64,000 nt of DNA, taken from the sequence record OR352941.1. The stretch is one strand, 5' to 3'. This DNA is from Escherichia phage AV111. This document shows positions 941 to 28,013 of the stretch, one piece after another; the stretch's first letter is position 1; every line of letters starts with the position of its first letter. A program made the translations under genes and the position numbers. The notes under the pieces were generated by a model. That model was not told the origin of the DNA and did not search any database. It saw only the letters and a program-made list of their open reading frames with translations.

Positions 941-1840
941 TTATTCCTCGATTACGACATCTTCATATTTAGGTATATTATACGGCGAAGAAATTAAAGC
1001 GTTAAAGTAGATGAACTCACCAAGACCTGGATGGAATACTTCTTCAGGATTTTCGAAATATTGAATCTTCGGACGTCCTTTAAGAATTTGATAGTACTCA
1101 GTTTTAGTTGGATTAAAAATTCGAATCAGCGCTTCTTCAGGATACTTATTTCTGTCGAAACTATTATTTGGATCAGTTATATAAAGCGGTTGACCTAATT
1201 GAATTGCGCATTCAACCACTTGTTCAAAACGATAGCATGGGTCACTAATTCGAAATGGATGAAAAATACCATCTAGATGAATAGGAGCCAAATCACCTAC
1301 AAGACGCTGCATGACGGAAGGACGTATAACTTTCTGCGTTACGATAATCTTATTACCATCTGCACCTGCGTTAACCAGCACTTCTTTTTGACGTTCATTC
1401 AACACAGTAGTTTGAAGTGAACGATTAACAGACAACATGTCGGTTTTTAAGAATTCATCAATATAAAAACGTGGTTTATTAGGGTCTGCAGTGATATTGA
1501 AATTGAATTCTACATCAAAAGCGCCGTCATATCCAGTGATATCTGTGATTAGAAAATCGCAATCATAATAAGCAATTAATGAATCAACTACAAATTCATT
1601 TTCAGACCAGAAATATTTACGAGTGTTATACGCGTTATCTTTATACCATAATGGAACAAACTTAAATTCTGGAAAAAGACGTTCGCATTCTTTAATATCA
1701 GATGCATTACGTGGATATGTAATCACATCACCCGGATTAGCACGGTGCAAATGAAGTTGGAAGTTGCCATCCTTAAGGATAGCATACTGTCCAGTTTCAT
1801 AAGACCGCATACTCAAGATAGGTACGCGGAAAATAGCCAT
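941..1840 (-). CDS. hypothetical protein, 299 aa (occupies the T4 beta-gt position; function unknown, candidate transferase)
   Basis: ORF track; tightly packed between P-loop gene and 42-like gene (1-nt spacing/overlap); no recognisable motif by eye. Confidence 0.6.
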   Translation of the reverse strand: MAIFRVPILSMRSYETGQYAILKDGNFQLHLHRANPGDVITYPRNASDIKECERLFPEFKFVPLWYKDNAYNTRKYFWSENEFVVDSLIAYYDCDFLITDITGYDGAFDVEFNFNITADPNKPRFYIDEFLKTDMLSVNRSLQTTVLNERQKEVLVNAGADGNKIIVTQKVIRPSVMQRLVGDLAPIHLDGIFHPFRISDPCYRFEQVVECAIQLGQPLYITDPNNSFDRNKYPEEALIRIFNPTKTEYYQILKGRPKIQYFENPEEVFHPGLGEFIYFNALISSPYNIPKYEDVVIEE

Positions 1841-2556
1841 TAGTCAAGGAATCCTTTAACATAATCAAAATCACGTTCAAACACATGGGCACTTACCATG
1901 GTATGAGTATAATCACCAACTTCTACACCACATTCGTTAGCGATATAATGAAGTAATTTTCCTTGGAGATAAAAATCCAACTGCATAACAACAGCACAGT
2001 TCTGAGAACGCATATGACAGTGGGTATAAAGCTTACCATCACGAATATAATAAGTCACTGAGTCAGTACATGGATATTCAAGCGTTTCGTCTGAATCAAG
2101 CAAAGCCTGATCAGAACTTTCTAGAATTTGGAACACAACTCTTCGAGAGTTAGGCTTCTCTTTAAGTTCTTTTAGAAGAGCTGGTAATTGAGCCGCAATG
2201 CGAGGACCATAGAAAGTGTTGAAGTTCGCCGGCAAAACATCTGATTTTGGTTTAGAAATAAATTTAGCGACATTAGGATATGCCTTAAACGCTTCTTCTG
2301 CGTTGGTACCACCAGAAATCATAAACTTCCAGAAGTCTTCGGCATATTCATAAGAGATGCGGTTAATACGTGGGTCGGTCATTTTGAATGATGACGGAGT
2401 GTCAACAACTACTGTCATAGACCCAATTTCATTACAACGTCCAATACGAGAATCAGTTACGAATTCCGGGTTTTCTAAAATTTCACGATTGACTGCTTTA
2501 AATGCGGTTTGAAAATCTGCGGCTTTGATATATTTCATTGTGTTATGTTTTCCCAT
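1840..2556 (-). CDS. 42: thymidylate-synthase-family pyrimidine hydroxymethylase (gene 42 position, divergent dCMP hydroxymethylase homolog)
   Basis: Motifs PNSRRVVF, YPCTDSVTYYIRDGKL and HMRSQNCAVVMQLDF parallel the T4 gp42 PDSRRG / CTNTVQYLIRD / MRSNDVVFG blocks, but overall identity to T4 gp42 as I recall it is low. Confidence 0.7.
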   Translation of the reverse strand: MGKHNTMKYIKAADFQTAFKAVNREILENPEFVTDSRIGRCNEIGSMTVVVDTPSSFKMTDPRINRISYEYAEDFWKFMISGGTNAEEAFKAYPNVAKFISKPKSDVLPANFNTFYGPRIAAQLPALLKELKEKPNSRRVVFQILESSDQALLDSDETLEYPCTDSVTYYIRDGKLYTHCHMRSQNCAVVMQLDFYLQGKLLHYIANECGVEVGDYTHTMVSAHVFERDFDYVKGFLD

Positions 2557-2597
2557 GTTTACCTCAATACAATTATTATATACTCAATTCGTAAAGC

Positions 2598-2837
2598 TTA
2601 TTTGAATTTCTTGGCAGTGTTGATATAACGTAAAGCTTCAGCATCGATACTTCCAAGAACACTATGAAGAAATGCATCAGCGTAGTATTCCAATTGAACA
2701 GATTCTTTAATCACTTTAGCCGCTTTAGTTTCAAACAGGCCCATCAGGGCCTTTTTAAGAATTTGTTCATTAGTGTTCAGTTTCATAGTCAAAATCTCTT
2801 CATTAAGTTGGTGGTTAAAAGTTTTTCTAGAAATCAT
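2598..2837 (-). CDS. hypothetical protein, 79 aa
   Basis: ORF track; overlaps stop of upstream gene by 4 nt, operon-like packing. Confidence 0.45.
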   Translation of the reverse strand: MISRKTFNHQLNEEILTMKLNTNEQILKKALMGLFETKAAKVIKESVQLEYYADAFLHSVLGSIDAEALRYINTAKKFK

Positions 2838-3994
2838 TCCGGGTACCTCAAAGCGTCATCAGAGTTAGTTATATCAATAATAGATATAGAGTTTTCTGCT
2901 AACCCGTTTTTAGATAATTGACGTTTATAATATCTTTCACAATATGTACACGTCGTCCCGCAGATTTCATTAGCACAATCGAAATCTGGATGTCTGAACC
3001 ACCTTTTTTCTAAAAAGCCATCTAACAAAGAGGTTTCAATATTTACTGTATGTGAAAACTCAGTTTCGTTTTCAAGAGTGAAAATAGTCTCTAAAGGCTT
3101 CCACAGTTCTAACAAATTACCTTCAAACTTTTCAGAAGCGTATGCTTCAAGAACTTTCAAAATGTAGTCTGTGCTACCTGTACGTCCTGAAACTTTGAAT
3201 TGAGTGATACCAATATCATTATAAAGTTTCAAATCTTGAGGACGAACAAAACGAGTTCTCAACCAGTTAAATGGGTCTGTATCACGAGCTTTAATACAGT
3301 GCTGCATAGGATATCCGTTTAAGGATTTAGCATCATCAGCTGTAACATCAGTACTATGGAAAATATAGCAAGAGTCACGATAGCTACAATGTGTTGTATA
3401 CCCTTTACCAGCATTAGAACAGAACTCATTTACAAGAACTTCAAATATTATATTGTTCTTATTGCAAAACTCTGCTGCACGCTTCAGGAAAGAAACTGAA
3501 CGGTTCTTATGAATTCCACAGCAGACCTTTTTGATATTATATTGGTCATGCAAGTATTTGATTTGAGTTACAGCATCGACATGTAGAATTGTTGAAACTT
3601 CAATCTCAATGTCTTTATTGACTTCACGAACAATTTCCATAACAACAGGGTTAGCGATAGTAATACGCCATACGCCTATTGACCAAAGATACTGAACATA
3701 ATCCTGAATAGCTTTCTTCTTCCACTCAACTAGTTCTCTTTTTGAACCAGGATTTATCGTGTTGAGTGTATAGTTAAAGCAAATACCTAATTCGTTACAA
3801 CGTTTAACGTAATCTTCTAACATCTTTTTGTCAACGTCAGGAAGCCTAAAATCAGGTCTGGCTGCTACAAAAGCCATTTCTCTTGTAGAGCCGTATACTT
3901 CGTTTATCAAGCTATTAGGATAGGTTTTATTGAGCTCTACGATTTTATCAAGAAGAGCTAAATCAAAATTCGTTCCGATTTTAAAAGTATTCAT
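2834..3994 (-). CDS. cysteine-rich hypothetical protein, 386 aa (possible metal/Fe-S binding; modification-island gene)
   Basis: ORF track; C-terminal FDCANEICGTTCTYCERYY (Cx4Cx3Cx2C) plus other Cys clusters; no confident family assignment. Confidence 0.6.
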   Translation of the reverse strand: MNTFKIGTNFDLALLDKIVELNKTYPNSLINEVYGSTREMAFVAARPDFRLPDVDKKMLEDYVKRCNELGICFNYTLNTINPGSKRELVEWKKKAIQDYVQYLWSIGVWRITIANPVVMEIVREVNKDIEIEVSTILHVDAVTQIKYLHDQYNIKKVCCGIHKNRSVSFLKRAAEFCNKNNIIFEVLVNEFCSNAGKGYTTHCSYRDSCYIFHSTDVTADDAKSLNGYPMQHCIKARDTDPFNWLRTRFVRPQDLKLYNDIGITQFKVSGRTGSTDYILKVLEAYASEKFEGNLLELWKPLETIFTLENETEFSHTVNIETSLLDGFLEKRWFRHPDFDCANEICGTTCTYCERYYKRQLSKNGLAENSISIIDITNSDDALRYPE

Positions 3995-19996: not shown

Positions 19997-20197
19997 TTAA
20001 CCGAACTTTTTAGCGCCTTTCCAGCCTTCGTACATAACTGCACAAGTCAGTAGTACAGCTTGCTGGCATTCTTTGTATTTGTAAATCCAGAACCAGCGTA
20101 AGAAGTCTTCATCCTCAACGCCGTTGAGTTTCATATTGGCAAAGAATTCGGCACGTTCTTCACGAAGCTTTTGCGATAACATAGATTCAGGATTCAT
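19997..20197 (-). CDS. hypothetical protein, 66 aa
   Basis: ORF track. Confidence 0.4.
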   Translation of the reverse strand: MNPESMLSQKLREERAEFFANMKLNGVEDEDFLRWFWIYKYKECQQAVLLTCAVMYEGWKGAKKFG

Positions 20198-20331
20198 TTT
20201 GTGTTCCAGGCCCCATTTTCATCGATGAACTTAATCCAGTCATTTACAGACCATTTAGTTGTATCACCCTTTGGATTAACATTTAAAGTATATAATCCCT
20301 GCTTAAAAAGCATTCGTTTGATATTCATAAT
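20194..20331 (-). CDS. hypothetical protein (~45 aa from internal MNIKRMLF start with GAGGAAA RBS)
   Basis: ORF track 20194..20421 overlaps upstream ORF; internal Met abuts it. Confidence 0.35.
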   Translation of the reverse strand: MMNIKRMLFKQGLYTLNVNPKGDTTKWSVNDWIKFIDENGAWNTK

Positions 20332-20335
20332 TTCC

Positions 20336-20656
20336 TCAACTGTAACGATAACATTCGTTAGCTTTACGTTTGGCTTCAGTATGAGAAGTATTATAATCAT
20401 ACTCTTCTTTACTGTAAACATCTTTTTTCAACTTATGAACTTCTTTGCGGAGTTGTCGATTCATTTCATTCTTGACTTCAGAATCAACGCCTTTCATACG
20501 TTTCCATTTATCTGAGCGGAAAATGTTTTCAACCATGTCTTTGTGGCTAACACCGTCAGGAGCTTTACGCTTACCAAAATAGTCATAATCGCGAACTTTC
20601 AAATCTTTACGACGATACGTTTTACCCATAAGTACCTCAGAGGTTGATTGATACAA
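20336..20656 (-). CDS. hypothetical basic protein, 106 aa
   Basis: ORF track. Confidence 0.45.
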   Translation of the reverse strand: MYQSTSEVLMGKTYRRKDLKVRDYDYFGKRKAPDGVSHKDMVENIFRSDKWKRMKGVDSEVKNEMNRQLRKEVHKLKKDVYSKEEYDYNTSHTEAKRKANECYRYS

Positions 20657-20885
20657 CGCGTTTGATAAAATTCACTTCACTTACTGAAAGGTCTTTAAGA
20701 CCGATTGATTCTAAACGCTGAGTAAGCGTCAACATCGGGATATAATCCCAATGAGTTTTAGTTGCTTGATAAGTACGAACTCCATTAGCAATTTCAACGT
20801 TCAAATCGGAAATGGTAATGAATATCGGACGTTCGTTATTTACATTAAGAGATAGAACAACTTTCTTTGAATCTAAACTAATCAT
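20637..20885 (-). CDS. hypothetical protein, 82 aa
   Basis: ORF track. Confidence 0.4.
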   Translation of the reverse strand: MISLDSKKVVLSLNVNNERPIFITISDLNVEIANGVRTYQATKTHWDYIPMLTLTQRLESIGLKDLSVSEVNFIKRVVSINL

Positions 20886-21064
20886 GGCTTAATTTCCTTC
20901 GCAATTGAACAGAAGATACCACGGTCACAAAGCATTTCACCAATTTCTGGATATTTGATTGAACGGTACCAAACATCCAGGCTTGAAACTCTGGTTATCT
21001 GTACGGCATTACCATTGACAGAATAGTACTGGTCAACCTTAATTTCTTTATCTTCAATTGTCAT
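20882..21064 (-). CDS. hypothetical protein (~60 aa from internal MTIEDKEIKV start with GAGGAAAA RBS)
   Basis: ORF track 20882..21226; upstream part lacks coding character, internal Met has SD. Confidence 0.4.
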   Translation of the reverse strand: MTIEDKEIKVDQYYSVNGNAVQITRVSSLDVWYRSIKYPEIGEMLCDRGIFCSIAKEIKP

Positions 21065-21230
21065 TTTATTTTCCTCTATAGCAGATGGTTTAATCTTAAC
21101 ACATCTATTGAGGATGTAAACTGTTTTATGAAAATATTTTTTGATTTGAGAGGGGCACAAGGAGATAGTGAAGTGAAGATTCCAATGGATTATATTAGAA
21201 ATGAGATAAAGAAGACCAGGCGGCACCTGG

Positions 21231-21554
21231 TCAATCTTCTATGATATCAGAGTCATATCCTAATGAAATCAAGGACTTTTTAAACTCTGCAATATTCTTT
21301 TGTTTCTTATCATTTAAAAATATGACAGGATAACGAATATTAAGTGAAGTGAATCCTGCACGTTTAGCAAGAGATACGATTAAAGGACGGTCATATTCAA
21401 TCTTACCATTATTAGTGAGGACTTTATAAAATGTATAAGGAGCATTGAGCTCCTTTAAAAGTTTTGTAACAGTATAACATCCTGGACAACGTCCAACTTC
21501 TTCAGGGATGCCATAAATTTCAATCTTGTTCTTTAAGTTCGAGTTTTGTTCCAC
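21231..21554 (-). CDS. nrdH: NrdH-like glutaredoxin (CPGC redox motif); probable GTG start
   Basis: KIEIYGIPEEVGRCPGCYTV...; ATG-initiated ORF would overlap upstream gene by 160 nt, whereas in-frame GTG at 21552-21554 is preceded by AAGGA. Confidence 0.6.
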   Translation of the reverse strand: MEQNSNLKNKIEIYGIPEEVGRCPGCYTVTKLLKELNAPYTFYKVLTNNGKIEYDRPLIVSLAKRAGFTSLNIRYPVIFLNDKKQKNIAEFKKSLISLGYDSDIIED

Positions 21555-21837
21555 GAGAAATAATTCCTTGGTAAGCCCAATAAGGAGGATTAACAGAATC
21601 CTCACCAGAGTTTTCTTCAGGAAAATAAACCTGGATAACGAAGCCGGATTCATCAAAGGTAAAATAAACCGTAGGCAGTTCACCTAACAAATCGGCACGA
21701 GCGTTGATTTCTTCGAGGTCTTGTTCACGTCCAGCCCAGAAGCTTGGGTTCAGACTACATTCATAGAAATAATAGTCATTACCGAACATATCAAAACCAT
21801 TCCAACTCTCTACTACATACCGCTCAAAACTAATCAT
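21520..21837 (-). CDS. hypothetical protein, 105 aa
   Basis: ORF track. Confidence 0.5.
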   Translation of the reverse strand: MISFERYVVESWNGFDMFGNDYYFYECSLNPSFWAGREQDLEEINARADLLGELPTVYFTFDESGFVIQVYFPEENSGEDSVNPPYWAYQGIISRGTKLELKEQD

Positions 21838-21839
21838 AA

Positions 21840-22055
21840 TTAAGCCTTTTTATCAAGAACAGAATTCAGTTTATTAGTAATTTTGTCCAAACGTTCATTG
21901 AATTCGCTGGAGGATAAACCCTTTTCTGGAGAAATTAAACTAATCACGAAAAATACACCAGTAAAAGGAATAAGAAAAATAGCTCCAACTGCCATAAACA
22001 AAAAGAACGTTACAGTTGTAAGAAAATCAGCTAAACCTTTACGAAATTTGTACAT
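21840..22055 (-). CDS. small membrane protein, 71 aa
   Basis: ORF track; hydrophobic core TVTFFLFMAVGAIFLIPFTGVFFVISLI. Confidence 0.5.
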   Translation of the reverse strand: MYKFRKGLADFLTTVTFFLFMAVGAIFLIPFTGVFFVISLISPEKGLSSSEFNERLDKITNKLNSVLDKKA

Positions 22056-22165
22056 ATTTACCCTTAATTAACTAAGCATTGATAATCATTAAACTATATT
22101 GCGAATAAAATTCTGGACCAAAACGAAAAATCATATCATTTATAGTATCCATAATGTAATTCAAT

Positions 22166-22636
22166 TTAATCATGTTTCCACACCCCATCGGTATTTGACC
22201 AAAGTCGCTGATTATCTGATCCTCGCCACAGCTTTTTAGTCGGAAGATTTTTCTCATACTTCCCATCAATAATAACATCAACATATTTAAGCATTTCTAG
22301 TTGTTTAATATCTTCAAACTTATATCCTGTCCACAACCAAATGCTTTTATTGGGATAAAGATTTTTTACTGTTTGAACAATGCAATGAATAACATCTCGA
22401 TTATCAGGATAGAGAGGGTCTCCTCCGGTTATAGTCAATCCTTCTATATAATCGTTATTCAAACATTCAATTAATTGTTCTAGTGTTTCACCAGTGAATG
22501 GAATACCATTTCTAGCATTCCATGTTGATTTATTATAGCACCCTTCACATTTATGCAAACAACCTGTAACGAAAAGAACGACCCTGCATCCAGGGCCATT
22601 CACAAAATCGCAAGGATAAAATCTATCATAATTCAT
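22166..22636 (-). CDS. nrdG: anaerobic ribonucleotide reductase activating protein (radical SAM)
   Basis: 156 aa; CDFVNGPGCRVVLFVTGCLHKCEGCYN. Confidence 0.92.
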   Translation of the reverse strand: MNYDRFYPCDFVNGPGCRVVLFVTGCLHKCEGCYNKSTWNARNGIPFTGETLEQLIECLNNDYIEGLTITGGDPLYPDNRDVIHCIVQTVKNLYPNKSIWLWTGYKFEDIKQLEMLKYVDVIIDGKYEKNLPTKKLWRGSDNQRLWSNTDGVWKHD

Positions 22637-24450
22637 TGGTGTTTAACCCTATGCATGATTTCTTTATTTTTGCCGAGATTAAATCCGCGTTCGTTCGGGT
22701 TTCCCAAATAACCGCATGTTCTTCTTATGGTGTTCATCTTTTTAGGATCAGTTTCTCCGCAAACTGAACAAACAAATCCGTTTTCAGTAGGAGTCATTTC
22801 ATGGGTACTTCCACATGTAAAACATTTATCTACTGGCATATTAACACCAAAATAATCTAAATGTTGTGCAGCATAATCCCACACGGCCTCAAGTCCTTTT
22901 AAGTTATTTTTCATATCAGGAAGTTCAACATAAGAAATGTGACCACCTGTCGCAATGAAATGATATGGCGCTTCACGAGAAATCTTTTCAAACGGAGTAA
23001 TATTTTCTTCTACTGAAACGTGGAAACTGTTAGTGTACCAGCCTTTATCGGTAACATCTTTTACACTTCCATATTTTTCTGTATCGAGTTTACAGAAGCG
23101 ATAACAAAGGTTTTCAGCAGGAGTAGAATACAAACTAAAAGCAAAACCAGTTCTTTCAGTCCACTGCTTAAGATGAGCATTCATTTTAGTTAAAATTTCT
23201 TGCCCAATATCACGGCCGACAAGAATATTCAATTCGTGAATACCAATGTATCCTAAAGACACTGAACTTCTACCGTTTTTAAATAACTCAATTATGTCGT
23301 CATCAGGTTTAAGACGAACCCCGAATGCACCTTCTTGGTAAAGAATAGGAGCTACAGTTGCTTTAACTCCTTTTAAGGAACTAATTCTACACATCAAAGC
23401 TTCAAAACACAGGTCCATTCGTTCGTTAAATAGCTCAACAAATTTCTGTTCATTGAACTGTGTTCCAATATAAGAATCTAACGCAATACGAGGAAGATTC
23501 AGTGTTACAACACCAAGATTATTACGTCCATCAAGAATTTCATTACCAGTCGAATCTTTCCATACGCTCAAGAAACTACGGCAACCCATTGGAGAAACTG
23601 GAACTGAAGAACCGGTAATAGCTTTATTATTCTTAACCGAAATAATGTCAGGATACATTCTTTTGCTTGCACATTCTAACGCAAGTTGTTTAATATCATA
23701 GTTTGGATCATCTTTATAAAGATTAACACCTTCTTCAACAAACATAACAAGTTTAGGAAAAATAGGAGTTATTCCATCACGACCAAGACCTTTAATGCGG
23801 TTTTTAAGAATTGCCTTCTGAATCATTCGTTCAGTCCAATCGGTTCCCGTACCAAATGTAATTGTTACAAAAGGAGTTTGTCCGTTTGAACTAAAGAGAG
23901 TGTTTACTTCATATTCATAAGCTTGGAATGCATCGTATACGTCTTTTTCTGTTTTAGATTGAGCATAATTCAACGCGTCAGCGATTTGCCATTTTTCTGC
24001 ATCTTCAACATGTTTAGCGTATGTACGTTTAACATAAGGAGAAAGAACTTTATCGACATTCGCAAAAGTCGTTCCGCCGTATTGGTGTGAAGCAACTTGT
24101 GCAGTAATTTGTGCCATAATTGCAGTAGCAACACCAATCGATTTAGGCGTTTCAATTTGAGCATTGCCTAATTTAAATCCGTTCTCAAGCATCCCTTTTA
24201 AATCTACTAAACAACAATTAGTAAAAGGCAATGATATACTGTAATCTAAATCATGAAAATGAATTAACCCGGCATTATGAGCATTTACAATATGGCTTGG
24301 AAGAATACTGCAAGCGATATGTTTAGAAACAATACCGGCCATTAAATCTCTTTTTGTTGGAAAGACACGAGAATCTTTGTTGGCGTTTTCGGTATTTAAT
24401 TCTTTATCTTTATTTGAAATAAAATTTAAAACATCTTTCTCTAAAGACAT
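22633..24450 (-). CDS. nrdD: anaerobic ribonucleotide reductase large subunit (glycyl radical enzyme), uninterrupted (no intron)
   Basis: 605 aa continuous ORF; C-terminal CFTCGSTHE...CSVCG zinc site and RRTCGYLG glycyl-radical motif. Confidence 0.95.
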   Translation of the reverse strand: MSLEKDVLNFISNKDKELNTENANKDSRVFPTKRDLMAGIVSKHIACSILPSHIVNAHNAGLIHFHDLDYSISLPFTNCCLVDLKGMLENGFKLGNAQIETPKSIGVATAIMAQITAQVASHQYGGTTFANVDKVLSPYVKRTYAKHVEDAEKWQIADALNYAQSKTEKDVYDAFQAYEYEVNTLFSSNGQTPFVTITFGTGTDWTERMIQKAILKNRIKGLGRDGITPIFPKLVMFVEEGVNLYKDDPNYDIKQLALECASKRMYPDIISVKNNKAITGSSVPVSPMGCRSFLSVWKDSTGNEILDGRNNLGVVTLNLPRIALDSYIGTQFNEQKFVELFNERMDLCFEALMCRISSLKGVKATVAPILYQEGAFGVRLKPDDDIIELFKNGRSSVSLGYIGIHELNILVGRDIGQEILTKMNAHLKQWTERTGFAFSLYSTPAENLCYRFCKLDTEKYGSVKDVTDKGWYTNSFHVSVEENITPFEKISREAPYHFIATGGHISYVELPDMKNNLKGLEAVWDYAAQHLDYFGVNMPVDKCFTCGSTHEMTPTENGFVCSVCGETDPKKMNTIRRTCGYLGNPNERGFNLGKNKEIMHRVKHQ

Positions 24451-25262
24451 AATTCTAATTTATCCTTTTGAAATTCTTCGTCTAAATATGGGTTCCAACC
24501 CATTTTAAACCTTTTGATGAAATTATCAATTCTAAATTTCGGTAAGTTTAAATCCGCAAAAATAGATGATTTACTTTTAAAATCTGGACCTAAATAATCA
24601 TATAAAATTTCTGCGTATTTTAACCATAATATATAAGTACCAGATTTAATTGCTCTCGGAGTTTTCCAAGGTTTTACACCATACATCGGATTTCCACTTC
24701 CTTTATGCCTGATAGAAGATGAAATTCCAATTTTAATTTTAGCTTCCTCTGTATGCGAAAATCCATGATGTGGATTTTCTTTCCAGTATTTTTTAGAAGC
24801 TTCTGATATTTTCTTTCTGGCTAAATTAGTATGATGCTTTCCATAAAATCCATGATTTTTACCTTTATTACGATTTCTTTTAATCATGGTTATTGATTGC
24901 TTTTTTCTAGTTTCTTTAGAAGGAGAAACACCATACGTTGTAAATTGACCATTAGCATATGCTAAATTAAAATACTCTTTATTCCATATATCTTTTTCTA
25001 TATTCTTTTGAAATTCAGCTTCAATGCTAGTTATTTGCTCATCTCCGACTAATTGAAAATATAATATTTCAACTTTCGGCGTTTCTTTCAACAGGGCTTT
25101 TTGAAATTCGGAAGATGACGAAGACGAATAATAAAATTTACCATTTTTATCAATAATATTCGTTCCGTCAAAAGTGCAATTAGTTTTACTTCCAATGTAA
25201 TAATATGGCGGGGTTTTAGCATTAATTCTATTAATAAATGATAGTTTATATACTACATTCAT
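24441..25262 (-). CDS. GIY-YIG homing endonuclease-like protein (Seg-like), free-standing between 49 and nrdD
   Basis: N-terminus VVYKLSFINRINAKTPPYYYIGSK; NUMOD3-like ISEASKKYWKENPHHGFSHTEEAKIKIG; overlaps nrdD start by 10 nt and 49 stop by 4 nt. Confidence 0.75.
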   Translation of the reverse strand: MNVVYKLSFINRINAKTPPYYYIGSKTNCTFDGTNIIDKNGKFYYSSSSSSEFQKALLKETPKVEILYFQLVGDEQITSIEAEFQKNIEKDIWNKEYFNLAYANGQFTTYGVSPSKETRKKQSITMIKRNRNKGKNHGFYGKHHTNLARKKISEASKKYWKENPHHGFSHTEEAKIKIGISSSIRHKGSGNPMYGVKPWKTPRAIKSGTYILWLKYAEILYDYLGPDFKSKSSIFADLNLPKFRIDNFIKRFKMGWNPYLDEEFQKDKLELCL

Positions 25263-25732
25263 TTTAAACTCTTTCTAAGCTGCTTTTTGAATGAAGCTAT
25301 TAATTGTGTTTTAGTATCAGATTCATTATATTCAAATCCTCTTTGAAGCATCTCAGCCATCATTTCCTCTTTGCCTAGTCTTGAGAACTCTTTAGTTTTG
25401 TCTGGAACAAAATTAGGATGGATATTATTATCAGAATAATCTTGTTTCAAATAAGCAAGAAGAGCTTCAAGCCATTCGAGGTAGTCAACATCACGTCCTT
25501 TAAGACCGGAACGATTGAACTTATGCTTCATTTGGCCTTCTGCTGCGTTGCACAGAGAACAGAGTAACCCACGAACTCTACCGGCTTTTGGCCCGTTTAA
25601 TTCGTGGTCGTGGTCAAGATGGTTACCTTGAACATCAGGGTCTAATTCACGGTGGCAAATAGGACACTTACCATTCTGTGCATCATAAAATTTTTGTTTT
25701 TCTTCTTTGTATAATTTGCCAGATAATAACAT
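25259..25732 (-). CDS. 49: endonuclease VII (Holliday junction resolvase) gp49
   Basis: 157 aa; CPICHRELDPDVQGNHLDHDHELNGPKAGRVRGLLCSLCNAAEG matches T4 gp49. Confidence 0.93.
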   Translation of the reverse strand: MLLSGKLYKEEKQKFYDAQNGKCPICHRELDPDVQGNHLDHDHELNGPKAGRVRGLLCSLCNAAEGQMKHKFNRSGLKGRDVDYLEWLEALLAYLKQDYSDNNIHPNFVPDKTKEFSRLGKEEMMAEMLQRGFEYNESDTKTQLIASFKKQLRKSLK

Positions 25733-25762
25733 AATAAACCCTTACCATATATAAGATAAGGG

Positions 25763-25770
25763 TATTTATA
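25763..25770 (-). promoter_or_regulatory. T4-type late promoter TATAAATA upstream of gene 49
   Basis: rc of tatttata at 25763-25770 gives TATAAATA about 30 nt upstream of the gene 49 start codon. Confidence 0.55.
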
Positions 25771-25961
25771 ATTTAGTAAACGTTATAAAAGTCTCGATGA
25801 AAACGTTTATACTGTCGAATCATTCTTTTAGTAGGACGTGTTACCGAAATGATTGAAGTCCTCATGTTCGGATTGTTTGGAGCCCCAATCATAATAAATT
25901 TCCAGGATTTTTGGCCGTTTGTTCTTTCGCCATAAAATAGTTCAGTTTTCATAATAAACCT

Positions 25962-26513
25962 TTAACTTAAACGTCTTTCTAAATATTCAATGTATTCCGC
26001 TGCGGCTTGCATCAGATTACCTTCATAACCGTCATTATTTTCTTGGGCGGCTAATTTAGCTAAAGCATAAGAAATACGTTCACCTTCGAATTCGCCAAGT
26101 CCACCATCACAAACTACTTGGTCAATTTCTTCGAGTTCATCTATTGAATGGGATTCCCAGAAGCACCAAAGAGAAGTATCACGGTCATAGATGCAAAGTT
26201 TCTCACCTGTGTTCAACATCACTTCAATAATGCCATGGTCGCCATAACCATCTTCGGTAGTAGTGCCAATTACCTTGATGATTGTTCCTTTCTTTAATTC
26301 AGGAAACTTATCTTGGAGTTCTTCGTCATCTTTAACAATCTTGAACCACTTACCACGTGTGTCAGAAATATTCATATCAATATCCTCTATAAAAGTTGCG
26401 ATGCGTGCGTTTCGCTTTGCGAAGCTGACGTTTAGTTGGTCGAACCGTAAATGGTCGTCCGGAGAAAAAATTCGGATCGGTTTTAATAAGCAAATACCAA
26501 TCATGCTTGCCAT
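25962..26513 (-). CDS. hypothetical protein, up to 183 aa (pin/49.x region)
   Basis: ORF track; true start may be an internal Met. Confidence 0.45.
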   Translation of the reverse strand: MASMIGICLLKPIRIFSPDDHLRFDQLNVSFAKRNARIATFIEDIDMNISDTRGKWFKIVKDDEELQDKFPELKKGTIIKVIGTTTEDGYGDHGIIEVMLNTGEKLCIYDRDTSLWCFWESHSIDELEEIDQVVCDGGLGEFEGERISYALAKLAAQENNDGYEGNLMQAAAEYIEYLERRLS

Positions 26514-26675
26514 TTTTTAATAAACGGTACAATAATTTAACTTGCATAATAATCTCTTCCCATCTCCATATCAATTAATTCATTTATTGAAGGTTCATCA
26601 TAACACGTTTCTTCGTCGTTGTAAACTGTTTCGACGTCTGGCTCGACTGTCTCCCATCGAGCCGAATACCATGGC

Positions 26676-27032
26676 TTAACCCCGGAGTTTATTGAGCTCT
26701 TCATAATCAATCCAGGATTCTAGCCCTGACGGCAGGTCACATTCAATGTTCCACAGAAGCTCTTCAATGGCTTGCAGGCGATTATATTCTTCAACGGTAA
26801 TGGTAACCATTGGTGCAACCGGTTCTGCCTTTTTAACCATCATGTCGTTCATCAGGACGTAAAGGTCATCACGAACGACAGTGTCGTTCCATCCCCATGA
26901 TTTGGCTTCGTAAGCTAATGATGAAGGGAGCACATTTAAAACTTCAATAATAGTTGGAGCATCAGGACCAAGTTCATTGGCACAAACTTCGTATACATCT
27001 TGGAAATCTTTAAGATTTAATGAATATGTCAT
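26676..27032 (-). CDS. hypothetical protein, 118 aa
   Basis: ORF track. Confidence 0.5.
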   Translation of the reverse strand: MTYSLNLKDFQDVYEVCANELGPDAPTIIEVLNVLPSSLAYEAKSWGWNDTVVRDDLYVLMNDMMVKKAEPVAPMVTITVEEYNRLQAIEELLWNIECDLPSGLESWIDYEELNKLRG

Positions 27033-27050
27033 TTAAAATTTTCTCGCAGG

Positions 27051-27347
27051 TTATTGTTCTACCCATGAACAAGAGACTTCAAAATCAGGACCACCGTATT
27101 CCCAGTGATATTCACCAACAGGAATCCAGTCACCGTGCTCGTTTTCTTCATAGTCCTCAGGCTCAAGGCCAACGAATCGCCATTGGACACCGATGATTCG
27201 ATTACCCATCATTACTCGAAATTCGCCCCATGGATTATCGATAGCATACTGAATATCGTTCTTGGCACGAGAGCACATTTCTTGATATAATAAAGCTTCT
27301 AATTCACCCTGGTCATAAGGGCCAGGGAAAGTTAAATCAATACTCAT
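27051..27347 (-). CDS. hypothetical protein, 98 aa
   Basis: ORF track. Confidence 0.5.
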   Translation of the reverse strand: MSIDLTFPGPYDQGELEALLYQEMCSRAKNDIQYAIDNPWGEFRVMMGNRIIGVQWRFVGLEPEDYEENEHGDWIPVGEYHWEYGGPDFEVSCSWVEQ

Positions 27348-27622
27348 TTAAAATATTCTCGCAGTTGATCAAATCCGCCAATGTGACTTCCGTCAGGAGC
27401 AAACACTTGAGGCATAGTCAATCCAACTTGTGATTCACGTCCAAGCTTAACCAGAAGCTCAGTAATTTTCTCATCATCGAACACACCTTTTTCTGGCATA
27501 ACATTAATGAATTCGAATGGCTGTTTCTTAACAGTCAGCAATCGTTTCGCATTATCACAATAAATGCATTTATGAATAGTAGAGTCATAACCGTACACTT
27601 TAAACATTATTTTTCCTTTCAT
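27344..27622 (-). CDS. nrdC: thioredoxin/glutaredoxin NrdC
   Basis: 92 aa; KVYGYDSTIHKCIYCDNAKRLL...MPQVFAPDGSHIGGFDQLREYFK matches T4 NrdC. Confidence 0.92.
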   Translation of the reverse strand: MKGKIMFKVYGYDSTIHKCIYCDNAKRLLTVKKQPFEFINVMPEKGVFDDEKITELLVKLGRESQVGLTMPQVFAPDGSHIGGFDQLREYFK

Positions 27623-28013
27623 CGATTAAATATGCAACACCAAATACAATACATGTAATAAAACCTGTGATACCGATAGAGAACATCAACACTGTACCAA
27701 AGAACCAAATCAAGTTATCTTTGGTAGTTTGTTTGATATCCATCTCACGAATTTCTATAGCTATCGTATCACCTTTATTCAGAAGCGTATAAAACGATGG
27801 CGATACACGCCTGTCAAAAACTCGTCCTTGTTCATCTTTATAAACTGCAATAAATTCCAGTTTAGAATATTTTCCTGTAGATTGGCCTGAGATTAATTCT
27901 ACTACCTCCACAGGAATTACTTTAGTTTCCATGTAAGTATTCTGGCTGTTCCAAATGAATGGAATGATGGCAAAAACTAAAGCTGCAATAAAACAACGAA
28001 GGCTATATCTCAT
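27600..28013 (-). CDS. membrane protein, 137 aa (two TM segments)
   Basis: ORF track; hydrophobic N- and C-terminal segments. Confidence 0.5.
   Translation of the reverse strand: MRYSLRCFIAALVFAIIPFIWNSQNTYMETKVIPVEVVELISGQSTGKYSKLEFIAVYKDEQGRVFDRRVSPSFYTLLNKGDTIAIEIREMDIKQTTKDNLIWFFGTVLMFSIGITGFITCIVFGVAYLIDERKNNV

Follow-up and report, generated by a model that had tools for sequence, protein, structure and literature searches.

A free-standing SegG-like endonuclease gene between gene 49 and nrdD of Escherichia phage AV111, and a probable case of intron-less homing with a linked nrdD allele

In Escherichia phage AV111 (OR352941.1), gene 49 and nrdD are separated by a 273-codon open reading frame (ORF273). 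Sequence comparison suggests that it is probably a functional, mobile and free-standing GIY-YIG homing endonuclease gene (HEG) of the SegG/I-TevII subfamily, spreading by intron-less homing. T-even phages serve as the model for studying intron-less homing, mobile elements are known to cluster at the anaerobic reductase locus, and free-standing HEGs are commonplace in such phages. The 49/nrdD junction represents a fourth kind of occupant at this locus, beside the nrdD intron, the nrdD/nrdG site and the intein, and a literature search turned up no paper on a gene inserted at this junction. Coordinates refer to the window, which is the whole stretch of 64,000 nt analysed. The locus is laid out as follows.

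25763-25770, minus strand: match to the T4 late-promoter consensus, TATAAATA, just upstream of gene 49 (consensus match only)
25738-25763, minus strand: hairpin just upstream of gene 49
25259-25732, minus strand: gene 49 (endonuclease VII), 157 aa, whose TGA overlaps the ATG of ORF273 (ATGA at 25259-25262)
24441-25262, minus strand: ORF273, 273 codons, free-standing SegG-like GIY-YIG HEG
22633-24450, minus strand: nrdD, an uninterrupted ORF of 605 codons without intron, intein or split
22166-22636, minus strand: nrdG, with a 4-nt overlap with the nrdD stop
nrdD/nrdG junction: mobC/segH site, empty in the window because nrdD and nrdG overlap

The sequence-only reading had described an intron-less nrdD and a Seg-like GIY-YIG gene inserted between gene 49 and nrdD so as to overlap both, and this description holds: nrdD is continuous and has no Rfam intron match, and ORF273 shares the ATGA with the gene 49 stop and 10 nt with the nrdD start. 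The ATG of ORF273 is the same ATG that begins nrdD in phages without ORF273, and ORF273 took over both the ribosome-binding site of nrdD and its ATGA coupling to gene 49. The new ribosome-binding region of nrdD (AAGGA) is located inside the last codons of ORF273, which has a GC content of 0.26-0.30 versus 0.34-0.41 in the flanks. The late-promoter consensus upstream of gene 49 is the closest transcription signal upstream of ORF273, and no terminator-like site was found between it and ORF273/nrdD; ORF273 therefore looks like a promoter-less cassette. A candidate sigma-70-like promoter for nrdD inside ORF273 (24529-24502) was rejected and no internal promoter is claimed, since the matches (20) did not exceed those in shuffled sequence (19.8).

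Judged by its alignments, ORF273 is a full-length relative of T4 SegG, with I-TevII being more distant. Three parts of the protein can be distinguished.

24948-25262, minus strand: N-terminal catalytic domain of GIY-YIG type, aa 1-105
24678-24926, minus strand: NUMOD3 repeat region, a DNA-binding module, aa ~113-195
24444-24677, minus strand: SegG-like C-terminal tail (PWKTPRA...GWNPYLDEEF...ELCL), overlapping the nrdD start

The family-conserved residues are Y5 (VVY), R12, Y22-I-G24 (YIG), Y44, S47, E81 and N99; the VVY (Y5) and YIG (Y22, G24) motifs are invariant or nearly so among 20-24 homologues, E81 is nearly invariant and N99 invariant. The structure model (pLDDT ~88-96 over the catalytic domain, except for 78 at aa 71-80) has strands at residues 2-8 and 21-26, so that GIY and YIG fall on neighbouring beta-strands, as in the GIY-YIG fold. 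The best match of the ORF273 profile in the PDB was 1ln0 (E 0.027); YIG aligned with the YVG of I-TevI, and in the profile alignment to 1ln0 E81 and N99 fell on its catalytic Glu (E75) and structural Asn (N90). The same alignment revealed no Arg at the position of catalytic R27 in the helix after YIG. That position is likewise without Arg in SegG and I-TevII, and R12 is invariant across the subfamily, including these two proteins. ORF273 gave no match to Pfam GIY-YIG (PF01541) even at E up to 10, none to the PDB with phmmer, and nothing significant with Foldseek. NUMOD3 was matched at 1.2e-8, with three stretches at a relaxed threshold, and the protein follows the Seg-type modular plan of a catalytic domain joined to small DNA-binding modules. 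The C-terminal tail presumably helps DNA recognition.

Close relatives differ in whether they carry ORF273, and purifying selection acts on it: all eight copies examined are intact, with a pN/pS of 0.13. Counts were taken from the INPHARED collection (~1041 records with the locus) because IMG/VR contained just two HEG+ loci. The HEG was found in 48-49 of ~1040 phage records, covering both Mosigvirus and Tequatrovirus: 49 records carry ORF273 orthologues with at least 90% aa identity, 48 have the HEG 3' end contiguous with the linked nrdD 5' allele, and 49 contain this allele at 95% identity or more, the next best being 74.5%. Most close Mosigvirus relatives lack the HEG and have the T4-like 49/nrdD overlap. 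The empty 49 stop/nrdD start reads ...GAGTTTAAAATGA(A/C)AATTG... in WFbE185, JK36, AlbertHofmann and eight IMG/VR or T4 loci, and the same place in HEG+ loci reads ...GAGTTTAAAATGAATGTAG..., so that presence and absence alternate at one precise site among close relatives. The insertion at the ATGA junction is precise to the base in 8/8 HEG+ loci compared.

The DNA around the HEG carries further marks of its spread, which can be placed as follows.

24173-25372, minus strand: low-diversity island common to HEG+ phages of two genera (pi 0.000-0.044)
24226-24450, minus strand: nrdD nt 1-225 of the HEG-linked allele, seen nowhere but beside the HEG
24280-24292, minus strand: counterpart of nrdD nt ~160-170, the cassette insertion point in contig L058
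23911-23916, minus strand: unoccupied counterpart of the group I intron site of T4 and G8, after nrdD codon 179

The island of ~1.2 kb runs from ~110 nt before the end of gene 49, through the HEG, to a point between nt 225 and ~280 of nrdD. Outside its edges pi climbs to ~0.09-0.14, in HEG+ and HEG- groups alike. It is nearly identical across Mosigvirus and Tequatrovirus while the neighbouring sequence differs by 20-30%, indicating that recent horizontal transfer is needed. For instance, the window and the Tequatrovirus PD112 are 99.6% identical at the HEG/nrdD junction and only 68-78% identical over gene 49 nt 61-360. Thus, the element and its immediate flanks are more alike than the surrounding DNA, and flanking markers are co-inherited. 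On the left, HEG+ and HEG- loci do not differ at the 3' end of gene 49, whose last ~110 nt are conserved at 95% or more in most loci compared, with the exception of two IMG_795xxx loci (~68% over gene 49 nt 361-420). On the right, direct positional comparison of nrdD in 8 HEG+ and 12 HEG- loci revealed 73 fixed differences within nt 4-225 and none in nt 226-400; over the 225-nt tract the two alleles are ~33% divergent (pS 0.73, pN 0.285). The HEG- alleles are unusually uniform over nt ~40-160 (pi 0.004-0.024). A HEG-less donor lineage of the linked allele was sought and none was identified, the closest being Citrobacter phage Merlin (74.5% identical). The earlier proposal that the arrangement fits free-standing intron-less homing is supported by the one-site polymorphism, the island common to two genera and the strictly linked flanking allele, from which we infer homing itself.

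Homing of ORF273 would start in a mixed infection, when the enzyme would cut the naive nrdD allele somewhere within the ~225 nt at its 5' end, a point near nt 165 being the most probable. The cut ends would be resected and the HEG+ genome would serve as repair template, with homology arms provided on the left by the conserved gene 49 3' end and on the other side by the conserved stretch of nrdD beyond nt 226. Repair would then copy in the HEG along with the divergent nrdD 5' segment, which would protect the new host because the target is no longer in it; the nrdD nt 1-225 allele would accordingly represent a co-converted, cleavage-resistant copy of the target region. Strict linkage is no proof that the target is inside the tract, since the divergence of the alleles alone would suppress recombination there. 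A review counts both SegG and I-TevII among the active homing enzymes of GIY-YIG type, and describes cleavage hundreds of bp away from the gene as characteristic of free-standing T-even enzymes (PMC2988022).

Two natural variants bear on the mobile unit. OLB35, whose GenBank record is flagged UNVERIFIED, retains codons 1-7 of the HEG, which read directly into the HEG-linked nrdD allele, the footprint of an in-frame deletion. L058, a single metagenomic contig of 4.7 kb with a frameshifted HEG copy (real or an assembly error), has in order a 55-codon remnant of the resident nrdD, the ORF273 orthologue and a complete nrdD that begins with ~170 nt of HEG-linked type. Its cassette sits inside the resident nrdD at about nt 165, with the resident 49/nrdD junction intact upstream; none of the isolated phages was found to have this arrangement. 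The insertion point in this one contig leads to the prediction of a break near nt 165 of naive alleles, i.e., near window 24280-24292. More tentatively, and with rather less than even confidence, the mobile unit may be regarded as a two-part cassette, consisting of the nuclease gene and a portable cleavage-resistant nrdD 5' end, that invades even distant phages and is later tidied. Such invasion would need no left-arm homology, the break being mended by one-sided or illegitimate repair, and would be possible because the cassette by itself restores a complete nrdD. The resident nrdD 5' end would stay as a dead remnant, as in L058, and later deletion would give the compact 49/HEG/nrdD form of the window.

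It had also been proposed that the endonuclease targets the locus occupied by the intron in T4. This part is not supported: ORF273 and the T4 intron have a target gene in common, not a target site. The intron point of T4 and G8 is at nt 536/537, the linked tract ends ~310 nt short of it, and L058 points to ~165. Moreover, G8 and F26 contain both the HEG and the nrdD intron, so the two are not mutually exclusive and do not compete for a single site. Most HEG+ records, the window included, are without the intron. Rfam gave no group I intron match in window 20000-28000 and matched the G8 positive control; it missed the intron in JK45 (L050), although nrdD there is split around an annotated I-TevII. 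An intein was also observed in the nrdD locus of a Proteus-phage-like relative.

Other explanations should be weighed against homing into the nrdD 5' tract. The base-precise insertion at ATGA would be expected if the recognition site spanned the 49 stop/nrdD start junction and were destroyed by insertion, as for intron-encoded enzymes. The nrdD tract would then be a passive passenger from the original donor, too divergent (pS 0.73) for internal recombination and linked for that reason alone, and the lack of any difference between HEG+ and HEG- loci at the 3' end of gene 49 agrees with this. Nevertheless, the L058 cassette left the resident junction whole, uniformity among HEG- alleles peaks at nt ~40-160 and not at the junction, and cleavage at a distance is typical of free-standing T-even enzymes (PMC2988022), which makes a junction target unlikely.

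It is considerably more improbable that ORF273 is immobile or domesticated, being inherited vertically with ordinary recombination and kept for the nrdD start signals or for competitor exclusion or regulation. Its supply of the nrdD start region and co-transcription with essential genes would favour retention (an argument made in PMC2988022), and the missing Arg27 equivalent would fit as well, whereas the active SegG and I-TevII also lack Arg at that position. Near-identity in two genera amid divergent neighbouring sequence and purifying selection over the whole ORF273 speak against domestication, and OLB35 indicates that loss of the HEG need not deprive nrdD of functional signals. Finally, trans homing has a described precedent (PMC2988022), and the joint presence in G8 and F26 would suit an ORF273 that is mainly a helper mobilising the nrdD intron in trans, like MobE for the nrdB intron. 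This role is hardly credible given the scarcity of the intron among HEG+ records, the distance of the linked tract from the intron site, and the intact I-TevII of the intron itself, which in G8 is 99.6% identical to the T4 protein.

Homing of ORF273 into the nrdD 5' end would explain the sharp mosaic boundary in nrdD, which otherwise seems to be unexplained recombination and is relevant wherever nrdD or gene 49 is used as a phylogenetic marker in Straboviridae. The predicted target window is naive nrdD nt 1-225, with the best guess near nt 165. Matched isolates exist in JK42 (HEG+) versus JK36 and WFbE185 (HEG-), and OLB35 provides a natural deletion derivative. If the two-part cassette is real, natural remnants would map the cut sites of homing endonucleases by sequence alone.

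Among known systems, I-TevII has the same host gene, the same GIY-YIG subfamily and the invariant R12, Y22, G24, Y44, S47, E81 and N99; it is only 23% identical to ORF273 and is intron-encoded after nrdD codon 179, whereas ORF273 is free-standing and upstream of codon 1. SegH and MobC are occupants of the nrdD/nrdG site, SegH being seg-like, with a GIY-YIG motif, and sitting in place of mobC (Sandegren et al., 2005, cited in PMC2988022). The review also names nrdD and nrdG as targets of seg and mob enzymes (PMC2988022). Like ORF273 they are encoded by free-standing genes flanking nrdD, but on its other side; identity of ORF273 with SegH was rejected by position, as the T4 annotation puts mobC between nrdD and nrdG. 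The F26 occupant of that site has just NUMOD3-level similarity to ORF273. SegF is cited as the paradigm of intron-less homing (Belle et al., 2002, cited in PMC2988022), and its gene adjoining the target, distant cut, localised marker exclusion and resistant donor allele would all have counterparts in ORF273, as read from natural variation.

The closest counterpart is T4 SegG, a GIY-YIG homing endonuclease whose free-standing gene sits between 59 and 32 (Liu et al., 2003, cited in PMC2988022). ORF273 differs from it in locus (49/nrdD versus 59/32) and in an extra NUMOD3 repeat block of ~70 aa, and the GenBank label 'SegG homing endonuclease' in JK42 reflects homology, not orthology. Nevertheless, the two proteins can be aligned along their full length with 36% identity, rising to 39.8% in residues 1-126, and they share the N-terminal motif set MN.VY...R...PPYYYIGSK...Y.SS...E...YFN and the C-terminal tail PWKT.RA...GW.P..D.E...ELC.L. 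Both genes are promoter-less cassettes set against an essential gene in their neighbours' orientation, and for both co-conversion of markers from a distant cut is expected.

The gene 49–nrdD region of the window is organized on the minus strand as follows:

22166-22636, minus strand: nrdG (Pfam Fer4_12 and radical-SAM)
22633-24450, minus strand: nrdD, 605 codons (Pfam NRDD, 2.5e-171, residues 21-604 of the product)
24441-25262, minus strand: ORF273, a 273-codon ORF between gene 49 and nrdD
25259-25732, minus strand: gene 49 (Pfam Endonuclease_7 and its dimerisation domain)
25738-25770, minus strand: T4 late-promoter consensus TATAAATA, followed at once by a hairpin with a 9-bp stem, just upstream of the gene 49 start

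The three flanking assignments, nrdD, gene 49 and nrdG, are secure by Pfam. The gene 49 stop and the ORF273 ATG share an ATGA, ORF273 ends 10 nt into nrdD, and GC across ORF273 is 0.26-0.30 versus 0.34-0.41 in both flanks. No Rfam family reached gathering score in window 20000-28000, whereas the same search on nrdD of phage G8 returned a group I intron with 105 bits. In the T4 reference record, nrdD is split by the I-TevII-encoding intron, gene 49 and nrdD overlap directly, and mobC separates nrdD from nrdG. Judged by gene layout, overlaps, Rfam result and the T4 contrast, the sequence-only reading had correctly described an uninterrupted nrdD and an ORF overlapping both the gene 49 stop and the nrdD start. 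The promoter and hairpin appear to resemble the known layout at T4 gene 49. Downstream of them no terminator-like site was found, and ORF273 would be co-transcribed with gene 49 and nrdD, and probably translated by coupling to gene 49. Further upstream are two small minus-strand ORFs, 25773-25952 (59 aa) and 26377-26574 (65 aa). They resemble each other in their basic C-termini (...RPTKRMIRQYKRFHRDFYNVY and ...RPTKRQLRKAKRTHRNFYRGY) and look like paralogues of unassigned function; at the equivalent position just upstream of gene 49, JK36 and JK45 have a 59-aa ORF annotated as the hypothetical protein 'gp91'.

Over the flanks, the window shares 96-99% identity with Mosigvirus phages, including JK42, WFbE185, JK36, moha and APCEc01. 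Loci lacking an ORF273 orthologue (HEG-, for homing endonuclease gene) were compared in the close Mosigvirus relatives WFbE185, JK36 and AlbertHofmann, in T4 and in seven IMG/VR loci; all read ...GAGTTTAAAATGA(A/C)AATTGAAAA..., with the nrdD ATG within the ATGA overlap. Loci carrying the gene (HEG+) read ...GAGTTTAAAATGAATGTAGTA... at this junction, indicating that ORF273 starts at the ATG that begins nrdD elsewhere. ORF273 has thereby inherited nrdD's Shine-Dalgarno sequence and the coupling to gene 49, and the nrdD start signals now lie within the ORF273 3' end. In the phage collection (INPHARED), the locus is matched by 1041 records, with an orthologue of at least 90% identity in 49 and an ORF273 3' end contiguous with the nrdD 5' end of the window in 48. 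Carriers include Mosigvirus (JK42, AV118) and Tequatrovirus (PD112, fPS-90, F26). Compared in 60-nt windows with the Tequatrovirus carriers, the AV111 sequence is 68-80% identical over gene 49 nt 61-360. Identity rises to 93-100% at gene 49 nt 361, stays at this level across ORF273 and up to about nrdD nt 280, and then tracks the background of each genome. Nucleotide diversity among eight HEG+ loci is 0.000-0.044 in this island and 0.09-0.14 just outside it, equal to that among HEG- loci. ORF273 is intact in all eight (pS 0.059, pN 0.008, ratio 0.13).

The first 75 nrdD codons form a distinct allele, MSLEKDVLNFISNKDKELNTENANKDSRVFPTKRD..., in every HEG+ locus, while HEG- nrdD begins M(K/T)IEKEIEGLI(Y/H)KTNKDLLNENANKDSRVFPTQRD.... 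Position-by-position comparison of 8 HEG+ with 12 HEG- loci gave 73 fixed differences within nrdD nt 4-225 and none in nt 226-400, with pS 0.73 and pN 0.285 between the alleles. Across the whole collection, 49 records match the 281-nt nrdD 5' segment at 95% identity or more and the next best match is 74.5%, indicating that the linked allele is essentially confined to the neighbourhood of ORF273; no HEG-less donor lineage was visible there. The linked tract stops where nrdD encodes the very conserved PFTNCCLVDLKGMLENGFKLGNAQIETPKS, and this segment, paired with the conserved 110 nt at the 3' end of gene 49, would supply the homology arms. Over nrdD nt ~40-160, HEG- alleles show unusually little variation (pi 0.004-0.024), which fits a target in constrained sequence.

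Two natural relics were found at this locus. The Mosigvirus OLB35 (MH992122, flagged UNVERIFIED) has the HEG-linked nrdD allele but no ORF273. The opening of this nrdD, ATGAATGTAGTATATAAACTAT, corresponds to ORF273 codons 1-7 (MNVVYKL), fused in frame at about nrdD codon 9 (L057 2480-2560, homologous to window 24420-25262). Read from this fusion, OLB35 is a deletion footprint in which ORF273 was once present and then lost, leaving a presumably resistant allele behind. The other relic is a 4.7-kb metagenomic contig, L058 (Logan SRR27536177), from a Proteus-phage-like T4 relative with gp49 65% and NrdD 68% identical to those of the window. Its order over 1718-3400 is gene 49, a 55-codon resident-type nrdD 5' end with FPTQRD, an ORF273 orthologue and a complete nrdD. 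The remnant TGA overlaps the orthologue ATG in an ATGA. The complete nrdD is of the HEG-linked type over its first ~170 nt (ELNTENANKD..FPTKRD) and from AAAGCCCATGATGA on matches the resident type of the IMG/VR locus L042. A cassette comprising the gene and its own nrdD 5' end thus sits in nrdD at about nt 165. On the simplest reading, a naive nrdD would have been broken near nt 165, the right side repaired by homology and the left side joined without it, since the gene 49 of this phage type has diverged too far. The orthologue is frameshifted (66% and 55% identical in its two frames), which may reflect either genuine decay or misassembly, and the arrangement was found in no isolated phage of the collection.

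The target of ORF273 might alternatively reach across the 49/nrdD junction, in which case the nrdD tract would be a mere passenger; strict linkage of the tract is compatible with this, since at 33% divergence internal crossovers would be blocked regardless, but the L058 insertion counts against it. A domesticated or immobile ORF273 is unlikely given the cross-genus island and purifying selection, and a role as trans-helper for the nrdD intron found no support.

The sequence-only reading had also proposed that ORF273 targets the locus occupied by the T4 intron, which is not borne out. The group I intron site, after nrdD codon 179 (nt 536/537), lies ~310 nt past the end of the linked tract and ~370 nt past the L058 junction. 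Both ORF273 and the I-TevII intron are present in G8, where Rfam Intron_gpI reaches gathering score (L004 6315-6546), and in F26 (L056 2034-6531), which has a third endonuclease gene in the nrdD/nrdG interval; JK45 has the intron without ORF273. They are therefore independent occupants of one gene rather than alternatives at one site. In JK45 (L050 1001-3863), an annotated I-TevII interrupts nrdD but Intron_gpI scores below gathering. The F26 occupant of the nrdD/nrdG (mobC/segH) site is a 244-aa ORF with NUMOD3 and I-TevI_DNA-bd matches; in PD112 (L053) this site measures ~310 nt and nrdG is annotated in shortened form. Replacement of mobC by SegH is described at this site (PMC2988022); identity of ORF273 with SegH was rejected by position, ORF273 being at 49/nrdD. 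Another mobile element was noted in L042 (5468-8245, UViG 2706796082), whose 925-aa nrdD ORF is interrupted immediately after PFTNC (codon ~78) by ~320 aa that look like an intein, and resumes at CCLVDLK; the insert lies in the conserved stretch where the HEG-linked tract ends.

At the protein level, Pfam matched ORF273 only to NUMOD3 (1.2e-8), with no GIY-YIG match, and phmmer against PDB found nothing; PHROG 7504 'homing endonuclease' matched at 5.7e-34. T4 SegG is 39.8% identical to residues 1-126 (tblastn). R12, Y22, G24, Y44, S47, E81 and N99 are invariant in a direct alignment of ORF273, SegG, I-TevII and two metagenomic relatives, and they vary little or not at all when 20-24 homologues are aligned. 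The best PDB match of the N-terminal-domain profile was the I-TevI catalytic domain (E 0.027), placing YIG on YVG, E81 on E75 and N99 on N90. No ORF273 residue aligned with I-TevI Arg27; what the subfamily has instead is Arg12, which is invariant and lies between the two strands bearing the motifs. The same holds for SegG and I-TevII, both listed as active (PMC2988022), which suggests a subfamily trait rather than decay. The closest N-terminal relatives occupy other classic seg sites (L059 4001-4639, L061 4001-4822): P0004, between gp59 and gp32 (the segG site), has the GWNP.LD.EFQK tail seen in ORF273, and P0003 is flanked by gp5 and a 5.1-like gene. The subfamily retains one catalytic domain while the remainder varies from locus to locus, P0004 still having the extreme C-terminal tail of ORF273.

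ORF273 orthologues are already labelled 'homing endonuclease' in GenBank, the JK42 copy as 'SegG homing endonuclease'. T-even phages are rich in homing endonuclease genes, and ORF273 is an uncharacterised member of a well-known kind; the literature search, mostly outside subscription papers, found no paper on an element at the 49/nrdD site. The locus offers an unusually complete natural record of spread, loss and ectopic insertion with a duplicated target-gene 5' end, by which the target site becomes a specific, testable prediction. Building on the established anatomy, polymorphism, island, linkage, purifying selection and family relationship, it is proposed that during mixed infection the ORF273 enzyme would cut naive nrdD somewhere in nt 1-225, most likely at about nt 165. 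The HEG+ genome would then template repair of the resected break, bringing in ORF273 and a divergent, uncuttable nrdD 5' end. The proposed scheme is the same as the intron-less homing described for SegF and SegG, which includes a cut at some distance from the gene (PMC2988022). The likeness to SegG extends end to end (36% identity by direct alignment), down to the C-terminal tail PWKT.RA...GW.P..D.E...ELC.L; ORF273 differs chiefly in an additional NUMOD3 block of ~70 residues. I-TevII is also alignable, at 23% identity.
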